Part shown: in pieces, positions 10,957 through 62,410 of the stretch | Numbering within the stretch: position 1 is the first letter of the stretch | Layout of the letters: each line of letters begins with the position of its first letter | Source: Desulfosudaceae bacterium | GTDB lineage: Bacteria; Desulfobacterota; Desulfobacteria; Desulfobacterales; Desulfosudaceae | Reading direction: 5' to 3' | DNA length: 64,000 nt | Assembly: GCA_963674745.2 (NCBI GenBank) | Contig: CAXXDV010000003.1 | Span: 238,478 to 302,477 of the forward strand | Notes under the pieces: generated by a model | What the model saw: the letters and a program-made list of their open reading frames with translations, nothing else | Database searches by the model: none | Told to the model about the DNA's origin: nothing | Translations under genes and position numbers: made by a program

Positions 10957-12189
10957 TTAATCGGCGGTGTGCCGTTTTTTTGAACGTCCGGGTCGGGCCA
11001 GGTTCCGGTCGATTTCCCTTAACGGCAAGGGGCTTTTCAAGAACTTCTCTCCGATTTCATAGATCACCACATCCGGTTGGTATGTCTCGACAAGGTCCAT
11101 TATCGGGTACCTGCTCAGTTCCGAATGACGGATGTGAATGACTTCCTTGATGATGCAGTGCAGATAAGGCGCGATAAAATTACTGAAAGAATCCCTGACC
11201 AGCAGCAACCGGCTGTCGGTGTCAAGGGCCGTGTTGATGATTCGTTGCGGTGCCATCCCCTGGCGCACGCGTATCTTTCTGGTGATCCGGACATCCTCGG
11301 GCGCTTTTTGTCCCAGGTGCCTTTCCAACGTCTGTTTGCGGGGCACGGAATTAAACCACGGCTGGTTGTCTTTTAGATAACAGGTTTGCGGATATTCCAG
11401 CCAGCCGTACAGGGTATTGTCTCCGGGCGTCTCATGGTAAGAGATGGCGTCAGTTAAAACAGCGCCCGGTATTTTCAATAATGTTTGCAAATGGGCGGCT
11501 GTTTCCTGGAAGGCGTAAAAACCACCGACACTGTTCCAGTGTGTTCCGCCGGGAAAATACAATGCCTCCGGACCGGACTTTTTTTGCAGCAGTCGTGCGG
11601 TCGGATCGATAACAGTAACCTGTCGCCGCATGAGTCCTTCACGTATAAGGTCGCGTCGGGATGGCGCGTCAATCCCCCGCTGGGCCCAGTCCGGCAGCTT
11701 TTCAGGGTAAATCGTGTGCTTGTCCGGCGCTACCAGCAGCATAAAGGGAATGCCTTTGTCTGCCAGCGCGTCGCGCAGGGTCACGAAAAACCTGATCGCT
11801 TTTGGAATATCCCCACGACTTTCCCAGTCCAGTCTGCGGTGCTGGGTAAGTGCATCGCAGGACTGATCGCCTAAAAACAGCCAGCCGTCTTTGCCGATGG
11901 TTACCCGGTCGGGCTTGGCGGAAACGCCCAGATCGGCATACAGCCGGGTCATCGCCTTGATCAGTTCAAAGCGAAAAATGACCCTGTCATTGAACCATTC
12001 CTCCAGGGCTTCTGATTCTTTGTCAAAACGGATGGAAAAAGTCGGTGCGGGTGCCGGTTTTCGGCGTTCGATGCGGGAGAAACGTTTCGTATCCGGCGCC
12101 TTGAACATGCCCAGCATGGGAAACACCAGCACGATCAGGAGCCCCAAAATGCAGCATATATCAAATATGGAAGAATGGTTTTTGGGCAT
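10957..12189 (-). CDS. AlgJ/AlgX-like polysaccharide O-acetylation protein (SGNH-like)
   Basis: It has an N-terminal TM anchor and the VAPDKHTIYPEKLP motif. It is adjacent to an MBOAT gene and only 2 nt separate the two. Confidence 0.6.
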   Translation of the reverse strand: MPKNHSSIFDICCILGLLIVLVFPMLGMFKAPDTKRFSRIERRKPAPAPTFSIRFDKESEALEEWFNDRVIFRFELIKAMTRLYADLGVSAKPDRVTIGKDGWLFLGDQSCDALTQHRRLDWESRGDIPKAIRFFVTLRDALADKGIPFMLLVAPDKHTIYPEKLPDWAQRGIDAPSRRDLIREGLMRRQVTVIDPTARLLQKKSGPEALYFPGGTHWNSVGGFYAFQETAAHLQTLLKIPGAVLTDAISYHETPGDNTLYGWLEYPQTCYLKDNQPWFNSVPRKQTLERHLGQKAPEDVRITRKIRVRQGMAPQRIINTALDTDSRLLLVRDSFSNFIAPYLHCIIKEVIHIRHSELSRYPIMDLVETYQPDVVIYEIGEKFLKSPLPLREIDRNLARPGRSKKRHTAD

Positions 12190-12191
12190 GG

Positions 12192-13688
12192 CTAAAACCG
12201 GAAATAAATAAATGGATTATAGGCCCCGTTATATAGATGTATCATGGAAAGAAACATGACAAGGCCGCCCCATACCAGAAGTGATGCCTGTAACAAGGTA
12301 TAACACGGGTTGAAGCCGCCCTGCCGAGGCTGCCATTGCTGTTTCAAACGGGTAAAGGCGACAACCGGCAGGCCGGTGGCAGCCACCACGCCCACGATCA
12401 TGGAAAGCAATACCGGAGCAGAGGCGAATTCCGAAAAAGAGCGGGCATAAGCGTAAGAACCCGGGTCGCCCAGAAGGGCTCTGGTATAAAGCCAGGCCTG
12501 GCTCATATCTTCGGACCGGAAAACGATCCAGCCGGTCATTACGACCAGCAACGCGTATCCATGCCGGAAGACGTGAGGTGTCCGCTGGAGAACGCGTTCA
12601 AATCCGGCCCGTTCAATAACCAGGAACAGACCGTGCCAGCCCCCCCAGAGCACAAAGTTCCAACTGGCGCCATGCCACAATCCGCATAGCAGAAAGACAA
12701 TCCAAAGGTTCAGGTAAGTACGCCGTTGGCCGGCTCGATTGCCGCCCAGGGGGATGTATAGATAATCCCGCAGCCAGGTGGAAAGGGAAATGTGCCAGCG
12801 CTGCCAGAATTCACGGATTGACTTTGAAATATAAGGATAGTTGAAGTTCTCAGGAAAATGAAAACCCAGCATCAGCCCAATCCCGATGGCCATATCGGAA
12901 TAGGCGGAAAAATCAAAATAGATCTGCAGGGTGTATGCCGCGATGCCCCACCAGGCAACGGCCGTTGAAAGCTGATTCGGGGGCATGTTGAATATGGCGT
13001 CAGCCGCCTGGGCGATGATGTTGGCGAGGAGGACTTTTTTGGCCAGGCCGACAACAAAGCGTCTGGCACCGGCTGCGAATTGTGACCGCTCATTGCTTCG
13101 TTTGACAAGTTCGGCGGAAATTTGATTGTAGCGGACGATGGGGCCTGCCACCAGCTGGGGGAACATGGAAATATAACAGGCCAGCTGGTCAAAGCGCCTG
13201 GTGGCCACGGCAGTGCCGCGGTACACGTCAATGATGTAGCTGAGCGCCTGAAAGGTATAAAAACTGATCCCCAGCGGCAGGCTGATTTCCGCCACATCGC
13301 GCAGCCGTGTCGCGTCGATGCCCAGCCATTGTGCTATGGCGGCAACGTTGTTCAAGGCAAAGTTGGCGTATTTGAAATAACCCAGAAAACCGAGGCATAA
13401 AACCACGGTGACAGCCAGAACCCATTTGCGGCCGGCAGATTTTCCATTGCCTTCACCGCTCTGCGTTTCTGCCTCACCGTTGCTCAATAGAATACCGGCA
13501 ATCCACACCACAGCGATCAGGGCCACCATTCCGATTACCAGTTGCGGTTCACCCCAGGCGTAAAATATGAGGCTGAAGACCAGTAAAACCCCGTTGCGCA
13601 ATCGTACAAACCGGGCAGGCACCAGAAAATATGCGGCCAGCATTAACGGTAAAAAAAAATGCAGGAATATAAGCGAACTGAAAACCAT
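12192..13688 (-). CDS. MBOAT family O-acyltransferase (AlgI/DltB-like)
   Basis: It is a multi-TM protein with FWQRWHISLSTWLRDYLYIPLGGNR, the canonical MBOAT His motif. Confidence 0.9.
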   Translation of the reverse strand: MVFSSLIFLHFFLPLMLAAYFLVPARFVRLRNGVLLVFSLIFYAWGEPQLVIGMVALIAVVWIAGILLSNGEAETQSGEGNGKSAGRKWVLAVTVVLCLGFLGYFKYANFALNNVAAIAQWLGIDATRLRDVAEISLPLGISFYTFQALSYIIDVYRGTAVATRRFDQLACYISMFPQLVAGPIVRYNQISAELVKRSNERSQFAAGARRFVVGLAKKVLLANIIAQAADAIFNMPPNQLSTAVAWWGIAAYTLQIYFDFSAYSDMAIGIGLMLGFHFPENFNYPYISKSIREFWQRWHISLSTWLRDYLYIPLGGNRAGQRRTYLNLWIVFLLCGLWHGASWNFVLWGGWHGLFLVIERAGFERVLQRTPHVFRHGYALLVVMTGWIVFRSEDMSQAWLYTRALLGDPGSYAYARSFSEFASAPVLLSMIVGVVAATGLPVVAFTRLKQQWQPRQGGFNPCYTLLQASLLVWGGLVMFLSMIHLYNGAYNPFIYFRF

Positions 13689-39618: not shown

Positions 39619-39867
39619 GATGAGATCCCAAGTGTGATAAGATGTTAAGTCTCGGGTCGAATAAAACACAGTTATTAATTATTCGCTGATACCAGATTGA
39701 GGTGCGATTTGCAACAAGATATAGATCTTTCGTTAATGTTTACAAACCGATCAACCATATCTTCAGATATTGTGAAACAGTTGACGATGACGGATGATCC
39801 AGACTGCTTTTCACCTTGACACAGGTCGTCCGGTTTAGTAGGAAAATAAAAAGTTTAGAGATACCCT

Positions 39868-40030
39868 TATGTGATCGGTCGGTTAACGGAACCCGGTGGA
39901 AATCCGGGGCGGTCCCGCCGCTGTAACCCTGACAGGCGCTTTTTTGGAAGATGGCCACTGTGTCGTTTAAACGATGCGGGAAGGCTGAAAAAGCACGGGG
40001 AAGCCAGAAGACGAGCCGGGCGGTCGATAT
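39868..40030 (+). promoter_or_regulatory. Cobalamin (B12) riboswitch aptamer
   Basis: Conserved core GGTTAACGGAACCCGGTGGAAATCCGGGGCGGTCCCGCCGCTGTAA, GCCACTG...GGGAAGGC and a B12-box-like AGCCAGAAGACGAGCC. It lies upstream of cobT on the same strand. Confidence 0.8.
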
Positions 40031-40110
40031 GTGTGGAACCTGATGGTAAAGGGTTTTGGCAGGAGTTTTATTTGTATTCCTGCCGGAACCCTTTTTTTAT
40101 GGGAAGGTAA

Positions 40111-40206: not shown

Positions 40207-41271
40207 ATGAAACAGCTTGAAGAAACGATAAATGCGATTGTTCCGGTGGATGAGAAAATTTTTGAACAGGCTCGCCAGCGACTGGCCGACCAGGCCAAGC
40301 CGGCCGGCAGTCTGGGGGTGCTCGAAGACGTTTCGGCCCGTCTGGCGGCCATTACCGGGACCCTGGACGTGCGGTTGAAGAACAAGATCATTATTGTCTG
40401 TGCCGGTGATCACGGTGTGGTTGATGATGGTGTCAGCCTGTTCCCCCAGGAGGTGACCGCCCAGATGGTGTACAACTTTGTGGACGGCGGTGCGTCCATC
40501 AATGTTCTGGCCCGGCATGCCGGGGCCGAGGTCAAGGTGGCCGATCTGGGGGTGAATTATGATTTTGAACCGGATCTGCCCGTATTTCACAAAAAAATCG
40601 GCAAGGGTACCGCCAGTTTCGCTCACGGTCCGGCCATGACCCGGGAAGCGGCCGTGGCCTCAATCTGTGCCGGAATTGAAATCGTGGAAGAACTGTTTGC
40701 GGCCGGTCCGGTGGACATGATCGGCACCGGCGACATGGGCATCGGCAACACCACGCCCTCTTCGGCTATTATCGCGTCCTTTTCCGGCCTTGATCCGGCT
40801 GATTTGACCGGTCGCGGCACGGGTATCGACGATGAAGGCTGGAAGAAAAAAGTGGCGGTTATCCGCCAGGGCCTTGAGGTTAACAACCCGGACCCGGCCG
40901 ATGCCATTGATGTCCTGGCCAAGGTCGGCGGATTTGAAATCGGCGGCCTGGCCGGACTGGTGCTGGGATCTGCCGCCCGGGGCATCCCGGTGGTGTGTGA
41001 CGGCCTGATTTCCACGGCCGGGGCGTTGATCGCCTGCGAGCTGGCACCGACAGCAAAACAATATGTGTTTGCCAGCCATGTTTCGGTCGAGGCCGGACAC
41101 AAATTCATGCATGAGCGTTTGGGACTGGCCCCTCTGCTTGACCTGAAGCTACGGTTGGGCGAAGGCACCGGTGCGGCCATTGCCATGGAGTTGCTGGATG
41201 CGGCCACCCGTGTCCTGGCGGAGATTAAAACCTTTGCCGAGGTGAACATCAGGGATGTGCAGAAAGGATAG
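40207..41271 (+). CDS. cobT: Nicotinate-nucleotide--dimethylbenzimidazole phosphoribosyltransferase
   Basis: Motifs are KPAGSLGVLED, CAGDHGV, GDMGIGNTT and LRLGEGTGAA. The SD AGGAGG lies upstream. Confidence 0.9.
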   Translation: MKQLEETINAIVPVDEKIFEQARQRLADQAKPAGSLGVLEDVSARLAAITGTLDVRLKNKIIIVCAGDHGVVDDGVSLFPQEVTAQMVYNFVDGGASINVLARHAGAEVKVADLGVNYDFEPDLPVFHKKIGKGTASFAHGPAMTREAAVASICAGIEIVEELFAAGPVDMIGTGDMGIGNTTPSSAIIASFSGLDPADLTGRGTGIDDEGWKKKVAVIRQGLEVNNPDPADAIDVLAKVGGFEIGGLAGLVLGSAARGIPVVCDGLISTAGALIACELAPTAKQYVFASHVSVEAGHKFMHERLGLAPLLDLKLRLGEGTGAAIAMELLDAATRVLAEIKTFAEVNIRDVQKG

Positions 41272-41430: not shown

Positions 41431-42072
41431 TTATTCCGATTGCTTGAGGGTCAGGGCACCTGTCGGGCAGACCTCAATGCAGGCCTGGCAGGCGGCTTCG
41501 TCAACGGCCTGGCCTTTGGGCGGCAGCAGCGGGGTGACGACGGTGTCGCTGCCCCGGCCGGTAAAGGTGAACAGGGGCTGCCCGTTTTTATCCCGGCAGG
41601 TGTTGACGCACCGGCCGCATAAAACGCAACGGTCGCGGTTGTAATCCAGAACCGGATGGGATGTGTCGATGATACCGGTCGGTTCATAAGGCGGAAACTC
41701 TTTTGGTTTTAATTTGACCTTGAGAAATTTGGCCAGGTTCTGCAATTCACACTGCTTGTTGGCCGGGCAATGTCCGCAGTCCACATGATGGTTGGACAAC
41801 AGCAGCTTTAACCCGGTCCTTTGCAGTTCCCGGATGGTCTCAGTATCGGTCCACACCTCCATGTCATTTTCCACGATGGTGGTGCAGGCGGTCACCGGCC
41901 GGTCAAAACCCTTAATTTCGACAAAACAGAGACGGCACGAGGCCGGCGGGTTGGGCAGTTCTTTGACCCAGCACAGGTTGGGGATATAGATTTCGCTGTC
42001 CAGCGCCGCCTGAAGCAGGCTGATGCCTTCTTCGGCGTGTATCTCCCAGTTATCGATATATAGTTTTATCAT
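41431..42072 (-). CDS. NuoG/HndD N-terminal-like Fe-S subunit ([2Fe-2S], His-ligated [4Fe-4S], 2x[4Fe-4S]); no catalytic domain
   Basis: Motifs are CRLCFVEI, HHVDCGHCPANKQCELQ, CVLCGRCVNTC and CQACIEVCPTGA. It is only 213 aa. Confidence 0.75.
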   Translation of the reverse strand: MIKLYIDNWEIHAEEGISLLQAALDSEIYIPNLCWVKELPNPPASCRLCFVEIKGFDRPVTACTTIVENDMEVWTDTETIRELQRTGLKLLLSNHHVDCGHCPANKQCELQNLAKFLKVKLKPKEFPPYEPTGIIDTSHPVLDYNRDRCVLCGRCVNTCRDKNGQPLFTFTGRGSDTVVTPLLPPKGQAVDEAACQACIEVCPTGALTLKQSE

Positions 42073-42076
42073 GGCG

Positions 42077-44014
42077 TTATTCTACGGGGGCCTTGGGTTT
42101 TTCAATAATGGGTGCGGTCTCCGGCGGTGACGCTTTTTTGACGGCGTCGTACAGCGGCACGCAGACATTCAGGCACTCACCGCATTTGATGCATTTTTCC
42201 TGGTCAATACCTTTTTTGCGGTTGCTGGTGGTGAAAATGGCTTCTGTCGGGCAACAGCCCACACAGGCGTCGCAGCCGCGGGCGCACTTGTCCAGATCAA
42301 TATAATAGGCGATTAACTCCCGGCACATCAGGGCCGGGCAGACACCGTCTCTGATATGGGCTTCATATTCGTCCCGGAAATATTTGAGCGAGGTGAGCAC
42401 GGGGTTGGGGGCGGTTCTGCCCAGGCCGCACAGGGAGCCCTTCTTGACAGCCAGGGCCAGCTTTTCCATCTGTTCCAGGGTATCTTCCTGCCCATGTCCT
42501 TTGGTGATCTGGTCCAGTGTTTCCAGCAGGTGCCTGGTGCCGATGCGGCAGAAGGTGCATTTGCCGCATGATTCATTCTGGGTAAAATCCAGAAAGTAAC
42601 GGGCCACGTTGACCATGCAGGTATCATCGTTCATGATCACCATGCCGCCGGAACCCATCATAGCGCCGGCTTCGATCAGGGAATCAAAATCAATGGGCGT
42701 GTCCAGAAAGGACTCGGGCAGGCAGCCGCCGGAAGGGCCGCCGATCTGGACGGCCTTGAAGTTTTTCTTGTCCGGTATGCCGCCGCAGATGTCAAAGATC
42801 AGTGACCGCAGGGATTCTCCCATGGGGATTTCCACCAGGCCGGGATAAAGGACATGGCCGACAATGGAAAAAATAGCCGTTCCCGGGCTTTTTTCCGTGC
42901 CGATGGTCTGGAACCAGTCCGCCCCGTTGTCAATGATGGGGGCGATATTGGCCAGGGTTTTGACATTATCGATCAGCGTGGGGTAGCCGTGTAGTCCCTG
43001 TACCACGGGAAAGGGCGGCCGGTGACGGGGCATGCCCCGGTATCCTTCCAGGGACTCGATCAGCGAGGTCTCTTCGCCGCAGACAAAGGCGCCGGATCCC
43101 TGGAAAATTTCCATATCAAAGGAAAAATCACTGCCCAGGATATTGTCGCCCAGCAGGTTGCGTTCCCGGGCCTGCTTCAATGCCCGGTCAATCAGCTTGA
43201 CCGCCAGGGGATACTCGGCCCGGACATAGAAAATACCCCTGTCGGCACCGATGGCCCTGGCACAGATGGCCATGCCTTCCACTATCTGGTGGGGGTTGCT
43301 TTCCAGGATGGTCCGGTCCATGTAAGCGCCGGGATCGCCTTCATCGGCATTGCAGATGATGACTTTATGGTCCGATTTCTGCTCGGCGGCGATTTCCAGT
43401 TTGATGCCGGTGGGAAATCCGGCCCCGCCCCGGCCCCTGAGACCGGATTCGCCGATCGTTTCGATAATGGCATCCGGCTTCATTTCCAGGGCTTTGCCCA
43501 GGGATGTGTATCCGCCATGGGCGATATACTCATCGATTTCGGCCGGATTGATGGTGCCGCATTTATCCATGATAATGCGTTTTTCCATGTTAAACCGGGG
43601 GTACAGCATGACCGACGGCAGGGTGTCATTTTCTTCCATGGCCCCGTAAATATGCTCCAGCAGGGGGTCATGATTTTTAAGAAAGTTTTTGACCAGCATG
43701 ATGGCCTTGCCTTCGTTGACCTGCTGGTACATGATCGGCGGAAAGCCGGATTCCGGAACATCGATGATGACCAGGGGTTCGGCATAGCAGTGGCCATGGC
43801 AGCCGATGGGATGAATGACGGCCTCGATACCCTCCTTTTCAAGCTGGGTTTCAAAGGCGGTTTTGGTTTCCTGGGCGCCGGCGGCCAGGCCGCAGGTGGC
43901 CATGCCGATATGAATTTTTGGTGTCGTGGATTCGGAAAACGCCCGCCATTTCTGATCGGCGGTTTCCTTCAGGGCCCGTAATTTTTCCTGTATCTGGTCG
44001 CTATTCTGCGTCAT
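42077..44014 (-). CDS. NuoF/HndC-like NAD(P)H-binding flavoprotein with extra Fe-S domains
   Basis: Motifs are GLRGRGGAGFPTG, NADEGDPGA, ESCGKCTFCR and C-terminal 2x[4Fe-4S] (CDACVGCCP and CIKCGECLNVC). It also has an N-terminal thioredoxin-like domain. Confidence 0.85.
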   Translation of the reverse strand: MTQNSDQIQEKLRALKETADQKWRAFSESTTPKIHIGMATCGLAAGAQETKTAFETQLEKEGIEAVIHPIGCHGHCYAEPLVIIDVPESGFPPIMYQQVNEGKAIMLVKNFLKNHDPLLEHIYGAMEENDTLPSVMLYPRFNMEKRIIMDKCGTINPAEIDEYIAHGGYTSLGKALEMKPDAIIETIGESGLRGRGGAGFPTGIKLEIAAEQKSDHKVIICNADEGDPGAYMDRTILESNPHQIVEGMAICARAIGADRGIFYVRAEYPLAVKLIDRALKQARERNLLGDNILGSDFSFDMEIFQGSGAFVCGEETSLIESLEGYRGMPRHRPPFPVVQGLHGYPTLIDNVKTLANIAPIIDNGADWFQTIGTEKSPGTAIFSIVGHVLYPGLVEIPMGESLRSLIFDICGGIPDKKNFKAVQIGGPSGGCLPESFLDTPIDFDSLIEAGAMMGSGGMVIMNDDTCMVNVARYFLDFTQNESCGKCTFCRIGTRHLLETLDQITKGHGQEDTLEQMEKLALAVKKGSLCGLGRTAPNPVLTSLKYFRDEYEAHIRDGVCPALMCRELIAYYIDLDKCARGCDACVGCCPTEAIFTTSNRKKGIDQEKCIKCGECLNVCVPLYDAVKKASPPETAPIIEKPKAPVE

Positions 44015-44699
44015 TTTGTTGATCTGCTTTGGCTTTCTTTTTGGCGATGTCTATCTGGGTGAACAGGCCTTCAATTTTACTGGGGGTCATGTAGGCATGG
44101 ACCTTTTCATTCACCAGGGCCACCGGCGCCAGGGCGCAGCAGCCCACACAGGCCACCCGTTCCAGGCTGAATTCCCGGTCTTCCGTGGTCTGGCCCTCGG
44201 TAATGTCCAGCTTGCGTTCAAAGTTTTCCAGGATAATATCAGCACCGCGGACATGGCAGGCGGTGCCCATACAGACCTTGACCTGGTGTTTGCCCGGGGG
44301 GTTGAATCGGAACTGGTTGTAAAATGAAGCCACCCCGACAACTTCACCGGTGGGAATATTTAAATGACCGGCCACCAGGTCCAGGGCCTCAACCGGCAGA
44401 TATCCCAGCTCTTTCTGGGATTTTTGTAAAAGGGGAATCAGTGAACTCCTGTCCCGGGAATATGTTTCCAGAGCCAGACGGATGGTTTCGATTTTTTGTT
44501 TTTCTTCAGCGGTTATGTGGGTCAGCATGACAAATCCAGACAACAAAGATTCAAAATCAAAATTCAAACCAACAATATAATTCCCAACCAGGATTTTTTT
44601 CAAGTCTTTTTTTGGGACATTGCTCAATTCGTCTTTCAAATGTGGGCTTTCAGACAGCAGAAATTTGTCACTTTTCTTGTGATTTTTTCTTGACATCAC
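44001..44699 (-). CDS. NuoE/HndA-like [2Fe-2S] subunit
   Basis: Motifs are VKVCMGTACHVRG and CVGCCALAP. The 57 N-terminal codons are AT-rich and may be non-coding, in which case the start is ATG 44528. Confidence 0.75.
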   Translation of the reverse strand: MMSRKNHKKSDKFLLSESPHLKDELSNVPKKDLKKILVGNYIVGLNFDFESLLSGFVMLTHITAEEKQKIETIRLALETYSRDRSSLIPLLQKSQKELGYLPVEALDLVAGHLNIPTGEVVGVASFYNQFRFNPPGKHQVKVCMGTACHVRGADIILENFERKLDITEGQTTEDREFSLERVACVGCCALAPVALVNEKVHAYMTPSKIEGLFTQIDIAKKKAKADQQNDAE

Positions 44700-51441: not shown

Positions 51442-51827
51442 ACGGATATTCTCCTTCAAAAAACCATCGACTTCACTGAACATTATACAATTTGTTTACT
51501 GCCACTTGTTTTCTTTATACTTCATAACGGCCCGATGATGCAACGACCGGCATTGCCATGATTTTCCATAATATTTTCGATAAAATAAACCCGAACAGGG
51601 GTCGTTATTATGCCGCTGTTGCCCTTTGATTTTCGTGTCAACAAATCGATATTATTGAGTTTTAACGCATCATTCGTGATCAGGGGGCCCCTTTTTGTTT
51701 TCCCCGGAAAAGGATCCGCGTTTCCTCAGAATTAGGTTGAATTGACCGGCTATAAGTAATACTGATATTTAACACAGAAATTAAGCTATTCTTAGTTAAT
51801 GCGTTCTAAATTGTGAAACGGGGGAGC

Positions 51828-53345
51828 ATGAATCAGAAAATCGGTTTTGACAACGACAAGTATCTTGAGGAGCAGACCAAGGCGATTCTGGAAAGAGTTC
51901 AGCGGTTTAACGATAAGCTGTACCTTGAATTCGGTGGCAAGCTGTTATTTGACTATCATGCCGCGCGGGTGCTGCCCGGATTTGATCCCAACGTCAAAAT
52001 GAGGCTCCTCCAGAAGCTTAAAGATAAGATTGATGTGATTCTTTGCATCTATGCCGGGGATATTGAGCGGAAAAAAGTACGCGCTGATTTCGGCATTACC
52101 TATGATTCCGACACCCTGAAAACCATTGATGATTTTAAAGAATGGGGTATATCCATTACCGCTGTTGTGATTACCCGTTATGAAGACCAGCCCTCTGCCA
52201 AAACATTTAAGAACAAACTTGAGCGAAGAGGCGTCCGGGTATATACCCATTCATTTACAAAAGGGTACCCGACCAATATTGATCTGATCGTCAGCGACGC
52301 GGGTTACGGCGCCGATGAAATGATCGAAACAACCAGTCCGATCGTGGTTGTGACCGGTCCCGGCCCGGGTAGCGGCAAGTTGGCGACATGCCTTTCCCAG
52401 ATGTATCATGAATATAAAAAAGGCGTTAATGCCGGATATGCCAAATTTGAAACCTTTCCCATCTGGAACCTGCCCCTCAAGCATCCGGTCAATGTGGCCT
52501 ATGAGGCGGCTACCGTTGATTTGAAAGACGTCAACCTGATCGATCATTTTCACCTGGAAGCTTACAACGAAAAAACAGTCAATTATAACCGTGACATAGA
52601 TGCTTTTCCGTTGCTGAAACGGATTATTGAGAAAATAACCGGCAAAGAAACGTTTTATAAATCCCCCACCGATATGGGGGTGAATCGTGCCGGGTTCGGT
52701 ATTGTTGATGATGAGGTGGTGCGTGAAGCGGCCAAACAGGAAATCATCAGGCGTTATTTCAGGTCTTCGTGCGAATATGTCATGGGCCTGATTGATAAAG
52801 ATGTGCTTGAACTCTCAGAGTTGATCATGAAAAATATCGGCGCTGTGGCCGAAGACAGAAAAGTGGTCGCCCCGGCCAGAAAGGCGGCTGAGAAAGCGAT
52901 GCAAAACGGCATGGGGAATAAAGGCATTTACTGTGGTGCGGCGATCGAATTGAAGGACGGCACCATCATCACCGCCGAAAATACCGAGCTCATGCATGCC
53001 GCCGCCAGCCTGACATTAAAAGCGATAAAATATCTGGCTGAAATTCCTGAGAAGCTGGATCTGTTTCCGCAGAATATTGTTGATTCGATTACGCATCTGA
53101 AGAAAGCCGTGCTACACGGTACGAAGACGGACCTTGATTTAAATGAAACCCTGATTGCCTTGAGCATAAGTACCATATCCAACCCCACCGCCCAGTTAAC
53201 GCTGGAAAAACTTGAACTGCTCCATGGATGCGAAGCCCATATAACGCATATCCCGACGCCCGGTGATGAAGCGGGTTTAAGAAAGCTCGGTGTCAACCTT
53301 ACATCAGACCCCAATTTTTCTTCAAGGCGGCTATACATCAGCTAA
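51828..53345 (+). CDS. DUF1846 / UPF0371 family protein
   Basis: Collinear with the UPF0371 pattern as recalled: [72 protein letters not shown] and [14 protein letters not shown]. Confidence 0.8.
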
Positions 53346-53388
53346 CCTTGATGTTTTGTCGGATGGACAAAAAATTTTAAGAAAATTC

Positions 53389-53434
53389 TTGCAATCAGAT
53401 AAGGCGCCCATTAAAGTGACTGACATGTCAGTCA
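53389..53434 (+). promoter_or_regulatory. Candidate promoter plus 18-bp perfect palindromic operator
   Basis: TTGCAA (53389..53394), a 17-nt spacer and TAAAGT (53412..53417) overlap the palindrome TGACTGACATGTCAGTCA (53417..53434) by one base at 53417. Confidence 0.4.
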
Positions 53435-53595
53435 AGAAAATAAAGAGCACCAATCTCGCACTGGATTCCAGTGTCCACCGGAATGAAGAATATATCATGT
53501 CAATTTTATGCCGGATTTCCCGGTCAAGCCGGGCGATGACGGACGGTATTCGCGCAGGGCACTTTTTACATTCATTATAAAACTAAAGGGGGCTG

Positions 53596-54363
53596 ATGAT
53601 GGTTTTAACCGAGTATAAATCGCCGGAAGAAATCAGGCATTCGCTTGGAAAAGCCCGGGGTGTTGTGGTGTTTTCCTGCAGCGGGTGCGCCAACATGAAT
53701 GAGATCGGCGGCCGGCGCGGGTTAAAATTCATGAAAAAACGCCTTTCGGCATGGGGATATTCGGTTGTCGCCGGTGCAACCCCTCCCGGTATCTGCATGA
53801 ACGCGGTTATGGAAAACGCGACTCATAAATGGATTCAGCCGAACAGATCAAAGGTGGACGCGCTTCTTGCCATCTGCTGTGCTGCGGGAATAAAAAACGC
53901 CGCTTATTTTAATCCCGATCTCAAGGTGGTTGCCGCTGCCGATCCCATGGGCGTGGAATGCCTGCTGCCCCACAATGCATATTATGAAGATGCCGGGGAT
54001 TATATGGTGGCCCATGAACTGTGCCTGCCCTGCGGAAGCTGCGTTTTGTCCTTTACCACCGGGATCTGTCCGCTGGTGGCATGCCCGGCAAAATCAAAAT
54101 ACGGCTATTGCAAGAACCCGCCTTACCCGGGGAATGGTTGCACAGTTAAGCCTGATCAAAAATGCGTCTGGGCAATAATCGAAAAACGGGGTGGTGACCT
54201 CGAAGGCCTGGGGAAATTAAAAGAGATTCATGAAAATCCGGATTATGAAAGAATTCCTTCTATTGACACACCGCCCCGGACCGTAAAACAGCACACAATC
54301 GCAGGATACTGCGGCGGTCGGTCACCATCATTCATATCGGATCTTTTACGCTGGGTAAGGTGA
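53596..54363 (+). CDS. MetV-like Cys-rich protein (methylene-THF reductase small-subunit / MTHFR_C-like), paralogue 1
   Basis: Motifs are VVVFSCSGCANM, LAICCAAGIK, CLPCGSCVLSFTTGICPLVACPAKSKYGYC and CVWAIIEKRG. The SD AAAGGGGG lies upstream. Confidence 0.6.
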   Translation: MMVLTEYKSPEEIRHSLGKARGVVVFSCSGCANMNEIGGRRGLKFMKKRLSAWGYSVVAGATPPGICMNAVMENATHKWIQPNRSKVDALLAICCAAGIKNAAYFNPDLKVVAAADPMGVECLLPHNAYYEDAGDYMVAHELCLPCGSCVLSFTTGICPLVACPAKSKYGYCKNPPYPGNGCTVKPDQKCVWAIIEKRGGDLEGLGKLKEIHENPDYERIPSIDTPPRTVKQHTIAGYCGGRSPSFISDLLRWVR

Positions 54364-54405
54364 TCGTTTCTTATAAAGCCATCAGAAATTTAAGAGGGAA
54401 TAAAC

Positions 54406-55179
54406 ATGTTTCAGACAAAATATAAATCCGAGGAGGAGCTGCAATATTCGCTTCGGAATTTTCAGAAAGTGGGCATCATTTCCTGTAATGTATGCTGCAA
54501 CCTGAGTGATTGCGGCGGACAACAGGGGCTGGAATTGATGTCCGGGTTTTGCCGGAACTGGGGGAAAGCGGTCGTGGCGGACTGCCTGATTTTTGGCGGC
54601 TGTGTCGGTACGGTTCATGAGCACGCGGTGAAAAAGCGGATATATCCTCATCAATCCGATATCGATGCGCTGGTTATGATCAGTTGCGCAGCCGGTATTA
54701 AAACGGCCAACCTCTACAGCCCGGGTCTCCCCGTGGTGGCGGCCTGCGATTCATTCGGATCTTATCCCCTGTCGCCGAGGCAGGGCCCCAATGACAGTCT
54801 TACGATACACACCTATTGCCCGATATGCCCCGACGGTCATTGCGTCATGTCTTATACCGCCGGAATATGCCCGGTTGTGCTGTGCCCTGAAAAATGTCGC
54901 TATGGCTATTGTGAAAACCCGCCCCAATCCCCAAACAGGCAATGCACGAAAGATGAAAACATGGCATGCGTGTGGAAAACCATTGAAGAAACCATTGCGC
55001 AAAGAGGCGAAAGCCTTGATTCCCTGAAGGAATTAGAGCAGATCCACGCGGACAAAACCCTGCGGCGGATGCCGACCCCTGAAACGGAACGGGCCGCCGG
55101 CTGGCAGATCAAAATGGCGCAATGGTTCAGCCTGAATGTATTAAATCGCGTGGCGGATTCATTGCATGCCGCCAGGTGA
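54406..55179 (+). CDS. MetV-like Cys-rich protein, paralogue 2
   Basis: It shares the architecture of 53596..54363: GIISCNVCCNL, MISCAAGIK, CPICPDGHCVMSYTAGICPVVLCPEKCRYGYC and CVWKTIEE. Confidence 0.6.
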   Translation: MFQTKYKSEEELQYSLRNFQKVGIISCNVCCNLSDCGGQQGLELMSGFCRNWGKAVVADCLIFGGCVGTVHEHAVKKRIYPHQSDIDALVMISCAAGIKTANLYSPGLPVVAACDSFGSYPLSPRQGPNDSLTIHTYCPICPDGHCVMSYTAGICPVVLCPEKCRYGYCENPPQSPNRQCTKDENMACVWKTIEETIAQRGESLDSLKELEQIHADKTLRRMPTPETERAAGWQIKMAQWFSLNVLNRVADSLHAAR

Positions 55180-55218
55180 TCCCAACGCAAGCGAAAGCAT
55201 TTTTTATAAGGAGAGGAC

Positions 55219-56436
55219 ATGGAAAGAAAACTGTTGAAAAAGCTGCACCGGCTTGGGGACATCATGAATAACGAGTCGGAATTTCCGATGACGGTTATCC
55301 GGTGGTATCTGGTGCCGCCGGTTTACAGATGGTATTTCAAGCCGCTTTACAAGGCCATGGCAGCCGTCCTGCCTGAAGCGGAAATCGATTTTTTACTGAA
55401 GTTGAAAAATGATCGATTGACCAAAAAACAGTTGCGGGAACGGGTGGGCGGTCCTGACGAAACCTTTGACGACCTTTTTAATTCCCTGATAACCAGAAAA
55501 GCCGTTCTCTGGTCGGAGGCCCGCCAGGACGGCGAGGAAGTTTTCAGAATAGCGCCCATGATGCTGGGATGGATGGAGTTAAGCTGCTCTGACGGAAACA
55601 TTACACCGGACAAAGAAGCCTTTTCCCGTGAACTGACGAAGTTTTTTAATAGAGTAAAACTGATGAATTTTTTCGGGGTGCGTAACGTCATTAACCAGAT
55701 TTTTTTCGGTCTGGGGCCGATGTCCGGGATCGCCCGGCTGCCGTTGAAAACAGAGACCGAAGAACAGATCAAGATCCAGGTCGGGCAGTCGCTCGATATC
55801 CCCGAAGCCAGGATATACAGTACCGGCAGCGTTAATAACCTGATTGAAAAATACGGTAATGACGACCAGATCGCCGTCACCAAGTGCCTCTGCCGCCAGC
55901 ACTGGGCACTGGAGGGCGAGCCCTGCCGGTTGGATCTTCCCCTGGAAACCCATTTATGGATTGGGCCGTTTGCCGACCATGTCGTCAAATATGGCTATGG
56001 CCGCCGGGTTTCAAAGGAGGAAGCCTATGAAATAACCAGGACGGTCCGGGACAAAGGGGGAGTGCATGAAATCATGCATACCAGAATGGACGTGAACCAG
56101 GAACCCGGGTTGTCTGTCTGTAACTGCTGCTGGGACTGCTGCACGGCCCTTGGCAATTACAACCGGGGGCTGACGCCCCTGGCCCTTAAAGCCTATTACC
56201 GGGCGGTTATTGCCGATGAAACCAGATGCACCAACTGTGGTAAATGCGTGGAATTTTGCCCGGTGAGTGCCATGCAGCTCAAAAACGGTCGGCTATGGCA
56301 TGATCCGGGTTTATGCATCGGTTGCGGACAGTGCGAATACCAGTGTCCTGAAGATGCGGTCAGCCTGGTGCCGGATGAACGGGTGGTAAAACTGGGTCTT
56401 TTGAAAAAATCAAAAAGAAAACCGGCCTTTCAATAA
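55219..56436 (+). CDS. Uncharacterised Fe-S protein with C-terminal 2x[4Fe-4S] ferredoxin domain
   Basis: Motifs are CLCRQHW..C, CNCCWDCC, CTNCGKCVEFCP and CIGCGQCEYQCP. The SD AAGGAGAGG lies upstream. Confidence 0.65.
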   Translation: MERKLLKKLHRLGDIMNNESEFPMTVIRWYLVPPVYRWYFKPLYKAMAAVLPEAEIDFLLKLKNDRLTKKQLRERVGGPDETFDDLFNSLITRKAVLWSEARQDGEEVFRIAPMMLGWMELSCSDGNITPDKEAFSRELTKFFNRVKLMNFFGVRNVINQIFFGLGPMSGIARLPLKTETEEQIKIQVGQSLDIPEARIYSTGSVNNLIEKYGNDDQIAVTKCLCRQHWALEGEPCRLDLPLETHLWIGPFADHVVKYGYGRRVSKEEAYEITRTVRDKGGVHEIMHTRMDVNQEPGLSVCNCCWDCCTALGNYNRGLTPLALKAYYRAVIADETRCTNCGKCVEFCPVSAMQLKNGRLWHDPGLCIGCGQCEYQCPEDAVSLVPDERVVKLGLLKKSKRKPAFQ

Positions 56437-56494: not shown

Positions 56495-58612
56495 TTATTC
56501 TTCGGGAATAAACGATTTTCCGTAATCGCACCACACCTTGATGGCAATACTCAGGGGTTGAATCATGGGTACCGTGTAGGTATGGAATTTTTTGGCGTAT
56601 AAATAAGCCCGGGTTCTGGCGACGTGTTGGGAAAACCCCCTCGGGGAGACGATCAACGGTTTTTTGAGGTCTCTTTGCAGATCGAGGAGCCGTTCGGGAA
56701 GATATTCGGACAGATAAGGCACCTGCAGATAAATGGCCGTCATAATAATATCCGTATTGGGGTCTTCATTGATAATCCGCAGGGCTGCCATTAAACGGTT
56801 GTCATCACAGTTACCGAACAGGTCCAACGGGTTGGCTCCGATACCGCTGATGATCCGGGGCTTGTCCTCCGGCCGGGCGGTTTTGATATTGTCCGCCATC
56901 AGCTCCTGAAGCGCTTTCTTTGTCTCGGGCGCGAATTCGGCCAGTTCCATGCACTGTTCGGTCACCCGGTCCGCCAGCAATATCCCGGCGCCGCCCCCGA
57001 CACTGACCACGGCCACCCGGTTGCCTCTGGCGGCCGGCTGGGAGCTGAGCATGGAAAGGGTGTTGACCAGGCCTTTGGGGTCTTCGGTCAGTTTTTCGAT
57101 CAGGTAAAAGCCGGCCTGGCGGCAGCAGGCCTTGAAAGCCTCGTGGCTTCCGGCCAGGGAGGCGGTATGGGACAGGGTGGCTGCGGCACCGCCGCCCGTG
57201 CCGCCCTTGATGACCAGCACCGGTTTCTTGGCGGTGACTTCTTTGCCGATCTGCATCAGCTTCAGGCCGTTGTCATAACCTTCCATGTATATGGCGATAA
57301 TTTTTATCCGGGGGTCGTTTCCCATGTGGGCCAGAATTTCCGCTACGCCAACACTGCTGGCGTTTCCACAGCTGACCCACTGGCCCAGGTCCAGGTTGTC
57401 GGCGGCCAGCATTTCAACCAGTTCCAGGCCCACGCCGCCGCTCTGGGAGATAATGCCGATGCCGCTGGAGCCCTTGATGACACTGGTGCGATGTTCCGGT
57501 ATAAACAGGGTGTTGACTTTGGAAAAATTATCGATGACGCCCATACAGTTGGGGCCGATATAGGCCACGTCATATTTTATGCTCAACTCCAGCAGCCGCT
57601 CTTCCAGGTCTTTGCGGCCGATTTCGGCAAACCCGTCGCTGAAGATAATGGCGCCCCGCCCGCCCGCCTTGCAGAACTGCTCAAAGCTTTTCACCGTGGC
57701 TTCGGCGTTAATGGCAAAGACCGCCAGGTCGGGTGCTTCTGGCAGGGATTCAAAATCAGGATAGCAGGGCAAGCCCTGGACGGATTCCAGCTTGGGGTTG
57801 ATGGGATAGACCCTGGGAATGCCGAGGCAATTTTTCAGGATAATGCCGCCCATGGTACCGGGCCGGGAAGCGCCCACGATGGCAACCGATTGGGGGCTAA
57901 AAATGGCCTGCAGGCTTTTCATCTTGGCTTCGGAAAGATCCGTGCTGGAAGGCACGGCAATGGGGTCGTCGACGATGAGCCGGCAATCCACGATGGCATA
58001 TCCCTGTTCATAAACGATGACGGGATTTAAGTCCAGTTCGTGAATTTCCGGATGCTCCGCCATAAACCGGGATACATTTATCGCCAGTTCAATAACGGCC
58101 TGTTTATCCAGGGCGGGACCGCGAAAGCCTTCCAGAACGGTACCGGCCATGGTCTGGCACAGCATTTCCTCAACATCTTTTTCGGTCAGGATGCCGATAC
58201 CGGGCTGGACGTCGGCCCACAGTTCCACAAACCGGCCGCCATGCCCAATCATGGTTACCGGCCCGAATCCCGGGTCCTGCTTGGCCCCTACCAGAAGTTC
58301 AAACCCGGGATCAGCCATTTTCTGGACCAGGATGCCATCGGGGCGTCCGGCACCAGCCTGTTTTACGTTTTTCAGAAGTTGGTCCAGGGCTTTTTTTAGC
58401 GCTTCTTCGGTTTTGAGGTTTAGAAAAACAACGTCAGCGTCGGTTTTATGAATAATGTCCTTTGATATGGCTTTAACGACGACTGGGTAACCAAGCTCCC
58501 CGGCGACTTCCAGAACCTGTTGCGGATCGTCGGTCATCCGGCCGAGAATGGTGATTCCATGCTCCGCCAGCATTTCAGCGGATTGCGTAAAGTCTAACTG
58601 TGTTTTACTCAT
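56495..58612 (-). CDS. ADP-forming acyl-CoA synthetase (acetate--CoA ligase family, fused beta-alpha order)
   Basis: An N-terminal ATP-grasp (YPVVVKAIS...) is followed by a CoA-binding domain (SVAIVGASRPGTMGG) and a succinyl-CoA-ligase-like domain (GPNCMGV, SQSGGVG). Confidence 0.8.
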   Translation of the reverse strand: MSKTQLDFTQSAEMLAEHGITILGRMTDDPQQVLEVAGELGYPVVVKAISKDIIHKTDADVVFLNLKTEEALKKALDQLLKNVKQAGAGRPDGILVQKMADPGFELLVGAKQDPGFGPVTMIGHGGRFVELWADVQPGIGILTEKDVEEMLCQTMAGTVLEGFRGPALDKQAVIELAINVSRFMAEHPEIHELDLNPVIVYEQGYAIVDCRLIVDDPIAVPSSTDLSEAKMKSLQAIFSPQSVAIVGASRPGTMGGIILKNCLGIPRVYPINPKLESVQGLPCYPDFESLPEAPDLAVFAINAEATVKSFEQFCKAGGRGAIIFSDGFAEIGRKDLEERLLELSIKYDVAYIGPNCMGVIDNFSKVNTLFIPEHRTSVIKGSSGIGIISQSGGVGLELVEMLAADNLDLGQWVSCGNASSVGVAEILAHMGNDPRIKIIAIYMEGYDNGLKLMQIGKEVTAKKPVLVIKGGTGGGAAATLSHTASLAGSHEAFKACCRQAGFYLIEKLTEDPKGLVNTLSMLSSQPAARGNRVAVVSVGGGAGILLADRVTEQCMELAEFAPETKKALQELMADNIKTARPEDKPRIISGIGANPLDLFGNCDDNRLMAALRIINEDPNTDIIMTAIYLQVPYLSEYLPERLLDLQRDLKKPLIVSPRGFSQHVARTRAYLYAKKFHTYTVPMIQPLSIAIKVWCDYGKSFIPEE

Positions 58613-59923: not shown

Positions 59924-62410
59924 TTACCAGAAGATTTTATCGGTTGTGTCAAACATCCATGGCGCGGTTAACAGAAACAGCGCCACTGTGGTTAGAAAAA
60001 AAGGATAGATCCATTTTTGCGGAACCCCGGCAGGGAAACATAATTTTTCCGCCACCACCATCAGACCGTTGACCGGAAAAAACACAAAGACCCCCCAGGA
60101 CCAACGGCCGGTGGCAACCCCGGTCATGGCCGCGGTCATTCCTCCGATCATTGCAAATATCGCCATAACGGCAATCACCGGCCGGTTTCGTCCGTCCAGC
60201 GGAATATAGACGTGACGCAACAGAAAATCACCCAGGGGGATGTCCCAGGCCCGCCATAATCCTGAGGGCGGCAGGGGACCGAAAGGCCTGTACCCAAAGG
60301 CATCCGGAAGCTTGTAGCCGGCCTGGCGCCACAAGGCGTTCGACCAGTCCAGTGCGCCTCTTAACACCAGGTACAGGCACAATAACCGCCCGAATATCAG
60401 CAAAACGTGCAAGGCCGTGGTGCCTGACGCGGTAACGATCCAGCCGGCCAGAAAAAAACCGAGCACCAGTCCGGCCAGCAGCCTGAAAAATCCGGCATAG
60501 CCTGACAGCCAATGGCGTGAAAAATGTACTTTGGTCGTATCCGGTGAAAAACTGTTCTTGTAGTCCAGGGTGGGGAAAAACAGTATGAATGAGATCACCC
60601 GGGCGGTCATCCGGCGCTGAATTGGATCGACCAGCAGTACATCATAACTTTTGAATAGAAAGATAATCGAGAAAAGCATCAGTAGAAACGACCATTCGCT
60701 GTCGGCCGGATGCAGGATCATGGCGGTCAACACCAGGGGGATGGTGATCAAGCTCGGCAACAAAAGGAACAGGCGGGACCCGGCTGGGGACCATTTTTCG
60801 TATGCCACCCGGGCCAAGCGGCCCGTCAGCCAGGTGCCGATCCAGTAAAACAGTACGAAAACGACCAACACCGGTGCCACCGGCGGATATTTGATCGGCC
60901 AGTGGCCGGCGGCGGCATCGGATATCCATCTATATCCCCATATGCCCGCTATCAGCCATATGATGATCGGAATAACAGCGGAAAAAACAGACAACGGACC
61001 GGATACCTTTTGCCATAAAAGATACCAGTAATGGAAAAAGATCCAGAGCAGGTTGCCCGCAGGATAGATAAAAGGCATCTTTCCGCCCATCAGGGGAAAA
61101 GTCTGTTTTTCTTTGCGGGACACCGGCCAGGGTGACCGCGTTTTACCCAGTCGCCTGACCCACATGCGGTAATATGCGCGGTAGGTCAGGTTCATGGCCC
61201 AGAAATCCGCATTCTGGGCAAACCGGAAATTGGCCGCGTTAAACGAACGGGCCAGGATCGACCGAAAACTGTAGAACCGGTCTAAAAATCGTCGGGCGCC
61301 CTGGTAGATTAAATCCTCCGACAAACCGCCGACATCGGCCATTACGTGGGCACCGTCGTATTTGCGTATATCCCGGGTTATCAGTTTATCCTGGTCTTTT
61401 AAGGTTTCATAATCGGGCGTCCCCGGAAACCAGGTGGCGATATTGGTGGAAGCCAGGAACACACCGGCCTCTTCACAGAAACGATAGGTGTCGTCAAAGG
61501 ACTGAACGCTTTGCCCGGTCAGGCCCCACATCAGGCCGGTATGGACAAAAATGCCATGGGACTGGACTTTCCTGATGATGCGGGCATATTCCTCAACCGG
61601 GTTGAATCCTTTTTGGGCCTGGGCCAGTACATTTTTTTCAACCGATTCCATTCCCACAAATACGACTTTGCATTGGCTTCGCTCCAGGTGTTTGAGAAGC
61701 TTGTCGTCATCAAGCGAGGCCAGGGTGGCTTCGCCCATCCATCCCCAGACACCCTTGTTCTCCAGGAGCCGGCAGACCTCGATGATGTAATCCCGGTCGG
61801 CCGCGAAATGCAGGTCTACCGCCTCTACCAGTCCGTGGTCCCAATGGTCAAGCTCTCGCTCGATGGATTCCAGGCTGCGGGTCCTGAAGCCGGGCAGAAA
61901 GTGACGGCCGAAACAAAAGGAGCAACGATGCGGGCATCCCCGCGAAAACTCTATGGGAAAATTCACCCAGTAATATTTACCCGCCTTTTGAAGGTCCCTG
62001 CGGGGCAGGTGCTCGCCCCAGTTTTTAGGCGGTTGCGCCAGCCGATAAACGCCTTTTAAACGACCCTGTTCGGCGTCGGCGATAATCTTTTCTCCCAGTC
62101 CTTCGACTTCGCCGACCACCACCGCGTCAAAATGTTCCAGAGCCCGATCGGTCATGACCGAAGCCGGACCGCCGAGAATAGTGGGTATGCCCAGTTCCCG
62201 GAACCGGTCCGCCAGGTAAAGGGCCCGGGGAAAATTATAGGCCTGGGCGGATATGCCGATCAGGTCGGCGGCAGAAAAATTCACCGGTTCGATATTCTCA
62301 TCGTTGATTTCAACTTCGGCATAGCGACCGATTTCGGCTGCCACTGTCGGCAACCGGACCTGGCGGTAGCGGGGAATGGCCAGCGGCATATCAATGAGAC
62401 GAACGATCAT
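59924..62410 (-). CDS. B12-binding-domain radical SAM enzyme fused to a polytopic MBOAT-like membrane domain
   Basis: The N-terminal part (about 440 aa) has a B12-binding-like domain (LIGISAQAY..GIPTILGGP) and FSRGCPHRCSFCFG (CX3CX2C). The C-terminal part (about 390 aa) has about 10 TM helices and ends in LWRAWDIPLGDFLLRHVYIPLDGRN, MBOAT-motif-like with WH replaced by WD. Confidence 0.75.
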   Translation of the reverse strand: MIVRLIDMPLAIPRYRQVRLPTVAAEIGRYAEVEINDENIEPVNFSAADLIGISAQAYNFPRALYLADRFRELGIPTILGGPASVMTDRALEHFDAVVVGEVEGLGEKIIADAEQGRLKGVYRLAQPPKNWGEHLPRRDLQKAGKYYWVNFPIEFSRGCPHRCSFCFGRHFLPGFRTRSLESIERELDHWDHGLVEAVDLHFAADRDYIIEVCRLLENKGVWGWMGEATLASLDDDKLLKHLERSQCKVVFVGMESVEKNVLAQAQKGFNPVEEYARIIRKVQSHGIFVHTGLMWGLTGQSVQSFDDTYRFCEEAGVFLASTNIATWFPGTPDYETLKDQDKLITRDIRKYDGAHVMADVGGLSEDLIYQGARRFLDRFYSFRSILARSFNAANFRFAQNADFWAMNLTYRAYYRMWVRRLGKTRSPWPVSRKEKQTFPLMGGKMPFIYPAGNLLWIFFHYWYLLWQKVSGPLSVFSAVIPIIIWLIAGIWGYRWISDAAAGHWPIKYPPVAPVLVVFVLFYWIGTWLTGRLARVAYEKWSPAGSRLFLLLPSLITIPLVLTAMILHPADSEWSFLLMLFSIIFLFKSYDVLLVDPIQRRMTARVISFILFFPTLDYKNSFSPDTTKVHFSRHWLSGYAGFFRLLAGLVLGFFLAGWIVTASGTTALHVLLIFGRLLCLYLVLRGALDWSNALWRQAGYKLPDAFGYRPFGPLPPSGLWRAWDIPLGDFLLRHVYIPLDGRNRPVIAVMAIFAMIGGMTAAMTGVATGRWSWGVFVFFPVNGLMVVAEKLCFPAGVPQKWIYPFFLTTVALFLLTAPWMFDTTDKIFW

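Follow-up and report, generated by a model that had tools for sequence, protein, structure and literature searches.

To our knowledge, work on MetV has been confined to its partnership with MetF in acetogenesis, and its physiological electron donor is still debated. Canonical MetV acts with MetF in methylene-tetrahydrofolate (THF) reductases (MTHFRs). It has two [4Fe-4S] clusters and a predicted Zn site, and the electrons that it passes on to MetF come from ferredoxin, RnfC2 or HdrABC (PMC8760232). In the type IV MTHFR of Moorella thermoacetica (HdrABC-MvhD-MetVF), MetV stands beside Hdr-type CCG subunits in one complex (PMC8760232). Here we analyse three consecutive genes, A, B and C, from a Desulfosudaceae bacterium (GenBank assembly GCA_963674745.2), which lie in a stretch of 64,000 nucleotides of contig CAXXDV010000003.1 (positions 238,478 to 302,477 of the forward strand); this stretch is called the window, and its own numbering is used below. 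A encodes a non-canonical MetV-like Fe-S protein, B a MetV-like Fe-S protein paralogous to A, and C a multi-cluster Fe-S protein. What is new is a distinct and rare MetV clade that occurs as a conserved heteropair, is never found beside MetF and is significantly tied to HdrD-type subunits.

Genes A and B are homologues of MetV

Genes A (53596..54363, 255 aa), B (54406..55179, 257 aa) and C (55219..56436, 405 aa) are all encoded on the + strand with spacers of 42 nt (A-B) and 39 nt (B-C), and a purine-rich ribosome-binding site precedes each of them (AAAGGGGG at 53585-53592 for A, AGAGGGA and AAGGAG for the other two), in agreement with an earlier note on this DNA that had pointed to short spacers and strong Shine-Dalgarno sequences. 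No terminator-like site was found between B and C. The second ATG of A (53599) is likely the true start, giving a protein of 254 aa: relatives open with MVLT.YKS, and a database entry (P0001) has 254 aa. The note had also remarked that no MetF gene is adjacent, and a MetF profile search was empty across the whole window.

The identity between A and B is 39% at full length (E = 9e-58), which bears out their description as paralogues. Both matched PF12225 (DUF5981, "methylene-THF reductase C-terminal" or MTHFR C-terminal domain) above the gathering cut-off of 23, A with 55.5 bits (4.6e-15; residues 137-217, nt 54004-54246) and B with 40.4 bits (2.3e-10; residues 134-210, nt 54805-55035), so the proposed relation to MetV holds. 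In a motif alignment of 35 sequences (A1; A, B and 33 homologues, including the MetF-linked 216-aa MetVs P0030-35), A and B could be aligned end to end with canonical MetV, the N-terminal domain included; the 216-aa clade, which has NGPCGG and adjoins MetF (PF02219) and NuoEF-like genes, served as the positive control. Twelve cysteines are common to A, B and canonical MetV. Ten of them are invariant in 35 of the 35 sequences (C67, C95, C143, C146, C149, C158, C163, C172, C182 and C190), and the other two (C28 and C31) are kept in at least 90%, the gaps coming from truncated fragments. Every motif listed in the note was found in the alignment (SCxxC(A/C)N, (C/S)CAAGIK, CxxCx2-4C-x7-GICP-x3-CP and CVW), as was the replacement of NGPCGG, which is absent, by YGYCKN in A and YGYCEN in B.

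The N-terminal domain of A (residues 1-118) holds C28, C31, C67 and C95; in the AlphaFold2 (AF2) model it is a Rossmann-like alpha/beta domain (predicted local distance difference test, pLDDT, ~90) in which all four cysteines are placed at C-terminal strand ends, and a Foldseek search with the model returned generic Rossmann-like matches only. The PF12225 half carries the remaining eight cysteines (C143 to C190) and is followed by a clade-specific C-terminal extension of ~40 aa ending in ..VR. By the criteria of Pfam, A and B are members of PF12225; without NGPCGG and without linkage to MetF, they are better placed in a new subfamily than under MetV proper.

A rare MetV clade with HdrD-like neighbours

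When 1.84 billion representatives were searched exhaustively with HMMER, with clusters formed at 50% identity, the PF12225 superfamily came to 424 clusters in total. The non-canonical clade is rare, with 27 of the 424 clusters (E<=1e-30; proteins of 232-257 aa). Gene neighbourhoods were compared in 65 de-duplicated loci from genomes and metagenomes (35 non-canonical and 30 canonical), in which the signature splits the clades cleanly: Y[GES][PFY]C proteins reach E<=1e-49 against the profile of the non-canonical clade (A3), whereas NG[PIS]CGG proteins stay at E>=1e-37 and are the only group adjoining MetF. A MetF gene adjoined none of the 35 non-canonical genes versus 6 of the 30 canonical ones (Fisher p = 0.007); for an HdrD-like gene the counts were 16 of 35 versus 0 of 30 (Fisher p = 6.5e-6). 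The HdrD-like partner has ~400 aa with Fer4_8 and CCG domains, and CCG domains are a disulfide-reductase type of site. No curated equivalog matched it, and its likeness to the CCG subunits GlpC, LdhH, TmcB, HmcF and TfrB is generic. Loci with this neighbour belong to Actinomycetota, Acidimicrobiales, Bacteriovoracaceae, Desulfobacterales, Smithella/Syntrophaceae and Spirochaetota, and the link extends to Chloroflexota and others. No description of MetV-like proteins outside MetF contexts was found in the literature.

The two paralogues occur as a tandem. In six further independent loci (L001, L013, L014, L015, L016 and L075; Actinomycetota, Bacteriovoracaceae and metagenome contigs) an A-type gene is directly followed by a B-type gene, the A-type proteins being 45-56% identical to A and 38-41% to B, and the B-type proteins 45-55% identical to B and 35-39% to A; this comes to about 54% within a type and about 38% between the types. 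A metagenome scan for further close relatives of A gave two loci, one of them a duplicate. By sequence comparison, then, the duplication is ancient, and such conservation of the orthologous pair across loci is what an obligate heteromer would lead one to expect, so that A and B most likely act as a heteromer. The third gene differs from locus to locus. In L075/L076 the layout is that of the window (A-like, 255 aa; B-like, 256 aa; spacers below 50 nt) with an HdrD-like gene (397 aa) where C stands here; L014 has an HdrD-like gene upstream and an extra MetV-like gene, L016 a divergent HdrD-like gene upstream and a membrane AF_1499-like gene, L001 AF_1499 and MerB-like genes, and L015 nothing recognisable, while C takes the third place in the window only.

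Some of these loci have further features. A hydrophobic, probably membrane protein of the AF_1499 family flanks A/B-type pairs in two unrelated loci, L016:11187-11933 from a Bacteriovoracaceae metagenome-assembled genome (MAG) and L001:3458-4324, and may serve in these lineages to anchor the MetV-like pair to the membrane. L001:1-11230 (with the same array in L002, L003 and L078; hypersaline-type JGI/ENA metagenome contigs) holds ten PF12225 paralogues in ~11 kb, interleaved with two MerB-like organometal-lyase homologues (PF03243; weak NCBIfam matches to MerB and SaoL), the AF_1499-family protein (PF27259) and a 334-aa protein, and followed by acyl-CoA dehydrogenase and CoA-ligase genes; this extraordinary expansion suggests that a variety of partner enzymes is served by such pairs. 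Nor is the tie to MetF strict in the canonical clade, because 27 NGPCGG-type genes, many in Desulfobacterota MAGs, have no adjacent MetF. At L064:9531-12182, e.g., an NGPCGG MetV lies between a small 2x[4Fe-4S] ferredoxin and an EutA-like ASKHA (reactivase-type) protein, and MetF is absent within 10 kb; a similar layout seems to apply to many "delta proteobacterium" loci among L043-L072.

Gene C

The CNCCWDCC motif and the two CxxCxxCxxxCP motifs reported for C in the earlier note are present. The protein had also been called novel, but it is no singleton: its large, widespread and uncharacterised family comprises at least 257 clusters at 90% identity (coverage 87-100%, typically 390-400 aa) from Desulfobacterota, Acidobacteriota, Asgard archaea and others, annotated merely as "4Fe-4S binding protein". 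The AF2 model of C (pLDDT 86.5) has three parts: a helical, acidic N-terminal domain with a possibly MarR-like winged helix-turn-helix (wHTH; residues ~53-112, nt 55375-55554), a middle alpha/beta domain (nt 55885-56142) in which C223, C225, C236, C301, C303, C304, C307 and C308 are invariant, and a C-terminal 2x[4Fe-4S] ferredoxin domain (residues 330-385, nt 56206-56373). An alignment of 62 sequences (A2) showed 16 invariant cysteines, those of CNCCWDCC included, eight of which are in the ferredoxin domain. The latter matched PF00037 with 51.6 bits and PF13237/PF12838 above their cut-offs, and by Foldseek it superposes on the ferredoxin domains of PorD and oxalate oxidoreductase with a root-mean-square deviation of 1.0-1.3 A. 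Outside this module, no Pfam, NCBIfam or PDB relative was found apart from the weak MarR-type wHTH signal, and no match to the CCG domain (PF02754) was found in C at E<=1. With 16 invariant cysteines and a confident model that has no structural relative, the C family could represent a new cluster-binding domain that takes part in the energy or sulfur metabolism of anaerobes.

Several possible relatives of the N-terminal part of C were discarded. C as a homologous replacement of the HdrD-like protein was rejected in favour of an analogous one, only the ferredoxin module being alignable; a relation of its N-terminal 320 residues to the MerB-like, AF_1499 or 334-aa partners of L001 was rejected as well (hhalign probabilities <0.4%); and seemingly strong matches of residues 1-328 to PPR proteins in a PDB profile search were spurious, being the sum of ten ~5-bit repeat matches to a 30-residue helix.

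C relatives and MetV-like genes share some types of neighbour. In Helarchaeota, a C-family gene lies between two HdrD-like genes at a spacing of 36-73 nt. A 566-aa CoA-disulfide/persulfide-reductase-rhodanese (CoADR-rhodanese) protein is a neighbour of one C relative (L005) as well as of one MetV-like/HdrD-like pair (L040), and Nitro_FeMo-Co/DUF134-type genes adjoin the same C relative and MetV-like/HdrD-like pairs (L040, L053 and L018/L019). Two Actinomycetota MAGs (L013 and L022) have weak C-family paralogues at a distance of 5-8 kb from A/B-type pairs. The DUF134 genes belong to a recurrent cluster (L040:5634-17744, L005:245-7545, L018, L019 and L053) with several Nitro_FeMo-Co (NifX/NifB-C-like) genes, CbiA/MinD-type ATPases with ferredoxin inserts, Mrp/NUBPL, NifU_N, radical SAM and a metallo-beta-lactamase-fold protein. 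This cluster adjoins MetV-like/HdrD-like genes or a C-family gene and has the appearance of an uncharacterised system for handling Fe-S or sulfur.

Proposed function and alternatives

In our judgement, the chances are about even that A, B and C constitute one operon for a soluble, cytoplasmic, multi-cluster Fe-S oxidoreductase unrelated to methylene-THF reduction, with C as an exchangeable subunit. A and B, as an ancient MetV-type pair, would form a heteromer in which each subunit, by analogy with MetV, may hold two [4Fe-4S] clusters in its PF12225 half and a four-cysteine metal site (Zn or Fe-S) on its N-terminal domain. The pair would relay low-potential electrons, as MetV does, to a different partner, which in most lineages would be the HdrD-like protein with its 2x[4Fe-4S] and CCG domains. 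Here, C would fill the HdrD-like operon position as an analogous, exchangeable terminal or catalytic subunit, with a 2x[4Fe-4S] wire and a separate 8-Cys domain. The heteromer, the cofactor content, the direction of electron flow and the cooperation of C with A and B are all things that we infer. For the substrate, the leading guess is a compound of thiol/disulfide/persulfide type or one linked to CoA; the hints at thiol or persulfide (the CoADR-rhodanese protein, thioredoxin/DsbD in L004 and the disulfide-reductase type of the partner) are suggestive only.

Several points weigh against this reading. No A-B-C trio was found in any other locus examined, and the three closest C relatives (69-71% identity; L005, L073 and L074) have no MetV-like neighbour, so the link between C and A/B comes from adjacency in a single genome. 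The 8-Cys domain is without detectable similarity to CCG domains or to solved structures (in hhalign comparisons of C with 17 HdrD-like partners, the ferredoxin module gave a probability of 79% and residues 1-328 gave 0.4%), which bears on the putative role of C as an analogous catalytic subunit. An HdrD-like or MetF gene may also lie elsewhere in the 2.7-Mb genome, outside the 64-kb window. As to the substrate, genes of CoA-thioester metabolism (ACAD, CoA ligases, ACD, thioesterase, CoA transferase and CoADR) were not significantly enriched, being found in 10 of 35 non-canonical loci versus 4 of 30 control loci (p = 0.23), with references that came from the test set. Finally, the Cys-rich half of A was modelled with a pLDDT below 50, as expected if its fold depends on bound clusters, and searches of the PDB by sequence, by profile and by fold gave no relative of MetV. 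The earlier note had regarded the three genes as an uncharacterised electron-transfer or reductase module built on MetV-like scaffolds; A and B do look like parts of an uncharacterised Fe-S redox module, but the trio is not co-conserved, an outcome that the note itself had named as refuting its proposal, and what is conserved, the A/B tandem with its HdrD-like neighbour, had been missed.

The first alternative is that C is independent of A and B, a self-contained Fe-S enzyme or carrier, and that A and B use an HdrD-like or other partner encoded elsewhere. The isolated position of the closest C relatives speaks for it, as does the A/B pair that goes without C in all six other independent loci. 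The C family is also far larger than the non-canonical clade, the former counted in clusters at 90% identity and the latter at 50%, so the majority of C proteins must do without a MetV-like partner. Nevertheless, C follows B on the same strand after 39 nt with no terminator-like site between them, it fills the HdrD-like slot of L075/L076, and the two families share HdrD-like, CoADR-rhodanese and Nitro_FeMo-Co/DUF134 neighbours, while weak C paralogues lie near the A/B-type pairs of L013 and L022. Independence of C is the main competing reading, and we consider it unlikely.

A second alternative involves the leader/promoter region of A (53346..53595, + strand, 250 nt). It contains a perfect 18-bp palindrome (TGACTGACA and TGTCAGTCA, together TGACTGACATGTCAGTCA; 53417-53434, 162 nt upstream of A), which occurs nowhere else in the window (chance expectation 0.01), and a perfect 7-1-7 palindrome (CACTGGA-T-TCCAGTG; 53459-53473); both are candidate operator sites. 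An Rfam scan of the leader gave no match even at E<=1, so no known riboswitch or leader RNA was found, and the RNA fold of the leader has z = -2.0. C might then be an Fe-S redox-sensing transcription factor that binds the 18-bp palindrome with its wHTH and autoregulates the operon, with A and B as the regulated redox proteins. A MarR-like topology of the N-terminal domain would fit, with a weak profile match to AdcR (E = 0.007), Foldseek matches to PcaV and a MarR protein (E ~0.04) and a compatible order of secondary-structure elements, and C-family genes often stand alone. Unlike DNA-binding MarR proteins, however, the wHTH (residues 53-112) has a mean net charge of -4.4 across 62 homologues and an acidic wing, and its would-be recognition helix has conserved aromatic and acidic residues (F83, F87 and D/E88), so C is unlikely to be a DNA-binding regulator. 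Moreover, the 16 invariant cysteines, which would suffice for ~four clusters including the 2x[4Fe-4S] wire, suit electron transfer better than sensing, and the Helarchaeota gene between its HdrD-like neighbours resembles that of an enzyme subunit. In other loci, no palindrome-like site was found ahead of the A-type or C-family genes, the organisms being so distant that this is uninformative. We regard a regulatory role of C as quite improbable. That A and/or B is a genuine MetV serving a MetF encoded elsewhere, i.e., a dispersed methylene-THF reductase, is highly improbable: A and B pass PF12225 and keep every MetV cysteine, the window covers only 64 kb of the genome, and adjacency is not obligatory for the canonical genes, but the non-canonical genes never adjoin MetF, lack NGPCGG, have their own insertions and C-terminal extension and a statistically supported HdrD-like partner, and their conserved heteropair is not a feature of the known MetFV enzymes, which have one MetV each (PMC8760232).

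A broader and rather doubtful reading would be that MetV, instead of being specific to folate, is the prototype of a general module for low-potential electron input, and that A and B are the core of an undescribed multi-phylum family of soluble Fe-S oxidoreductases with interchangeable terminal subunits (HdrD-like mostly, MerB-like or AF_1499 in one hypersaline population, and the C family here); the C domain with CxC..C...CxCCxxCC would then be a new cluster site, an analogue of the non-cubane site of HdrB. The findings on the non-canonical clade in themselves broaden the view of the MetV fold, from an MTHFR accessory to a modular electron relay. The tie between the MetV-like heteropair and HdrD-type subunits, which crosses phyla, is of more interest than the trio of the window, so far unique; A-B-C offers a concrete three-gene target for biochemistry, and a thiol, persulfide or CoA-linked substrate, if true, would mean a new branch of Hdr-like redox chemistry.

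Surroundings of genes A, B and C

Upstream of A, with a gap of 250 nt, lies a DUF1846/UPF0371 gene (51813..53345, + strand). The open reading frame as listed begins with GTG; homologues are almost uniformly 505 aa long, so that translation probably begins five codons further on, at an ATG (MNQKIG..., ~51828). DUF1846 is near-universal, with more than 8000 clusters and ~75% identity across phyla, more than is usual for a protein whose function is not known, and the protein of the window is 87% identical to that of a Desulfobacterales MAG; still closer DUF1846 proteins are P0305 (96% identity, on a contig of 13.5 kb) and P0306 (93%, on one of 54 kb). The suggestion that DUF1846 and a divergent small ferredoxin might belong to the module was rejected for both: DUF1846 never co-occurs with MetV-like genes in other loci, and no conserved linkage of the ferredoxin to the operon was seen. 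Downstream, a gene for an ADP-forming acyl-CoA synthetase (56495..58612) converges on C.

The other genes of the window (for pili, a NuoEFG-like module, CobT, polysaccharides and sulfation) give no metabolic context for A-B-C. A NuoE-like/NuoF-like/NuoG-N-terminal-like trio (41431-44699, - strand; the NuoE-like protein is 2Fe-2S thioredoxin-like, and the NuoF-like protein has 645 aa with an extra ferredoxin domain) lies 9 kb upstream of A-B-C and is a soluble NADH-linked, possibly bifurcating module. A cobalamin riboswitch (39863-40034, + strand; Rfam RF00174, 79.7 bits) precedes a CobT-type phosphoribosyltransferase gene (40207-41271, + strand; PF02277). An 828-aa fusion of an N-terminal radical SAM domain with a C-terminal MBOAT-type membrane O-acyltransferase (59924-62410, - strand) has an unusual architecture, and a second MBOAT gene with an AlgX-like SGNH partner is found at 10957-13688 (- strand).

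Comparison with known systems

The closest described relatives of A and B are the MetV subunits of the MetVF-type (type II-IV) MTHFRs. They share the two-part build, with a Rossmann-like N-terminal domain carrying CxxC...C...C and a C-terminal CxxCxxC-GICP-CP...C...C...CxW region, as well as all 12 cysteines, and presumably also the function of a low-potential electron relay. In contrast to MetV, the non-canonical clade has Y(G/E/S)(P/F/Y)C in place of NGPCGG, A and B have an insertion at residues 119-135 and the ~40-aa C-terminal extension, and they form a conserved heteropair that never adjoins MetF and typically adjoins an HdrD-like gene.

C resembles the HdrD/HdrBC-type CCG subunits (relatives of GlpC, LdhH, TmcB, HmcF and TfrB) in combining a 2x[4Fe-4S] module with a separate Cys-rich domain, and such a subunit occupies its slot in L075/L076. 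It differs from them in having no CCG domain, the 8-Cys domain (CxC..C...CxCCxxCC) being unrelated at the profile level, in the reversed order with the ferredoxin module at the C-terminus, and in the added wHTH/helical N-terminal domain. Its C-terminal 55 residues are a standard 2x[4Fe-4S] module of the polyferredoxin type (MvhB, FwdF, RnfB and PorD), although this module makes up only ~14% of C and the other 330 residues have no such relative in Pfam, NCBIfam or PDB. Compared with the type IV MTHFR, in which MetV and CCG subunits also meet, neither the window nor the related operons have a MetF, HdrA or MvhD gene, and the CCG protein is of the fused HdrD type or, in the window, replaced by C.

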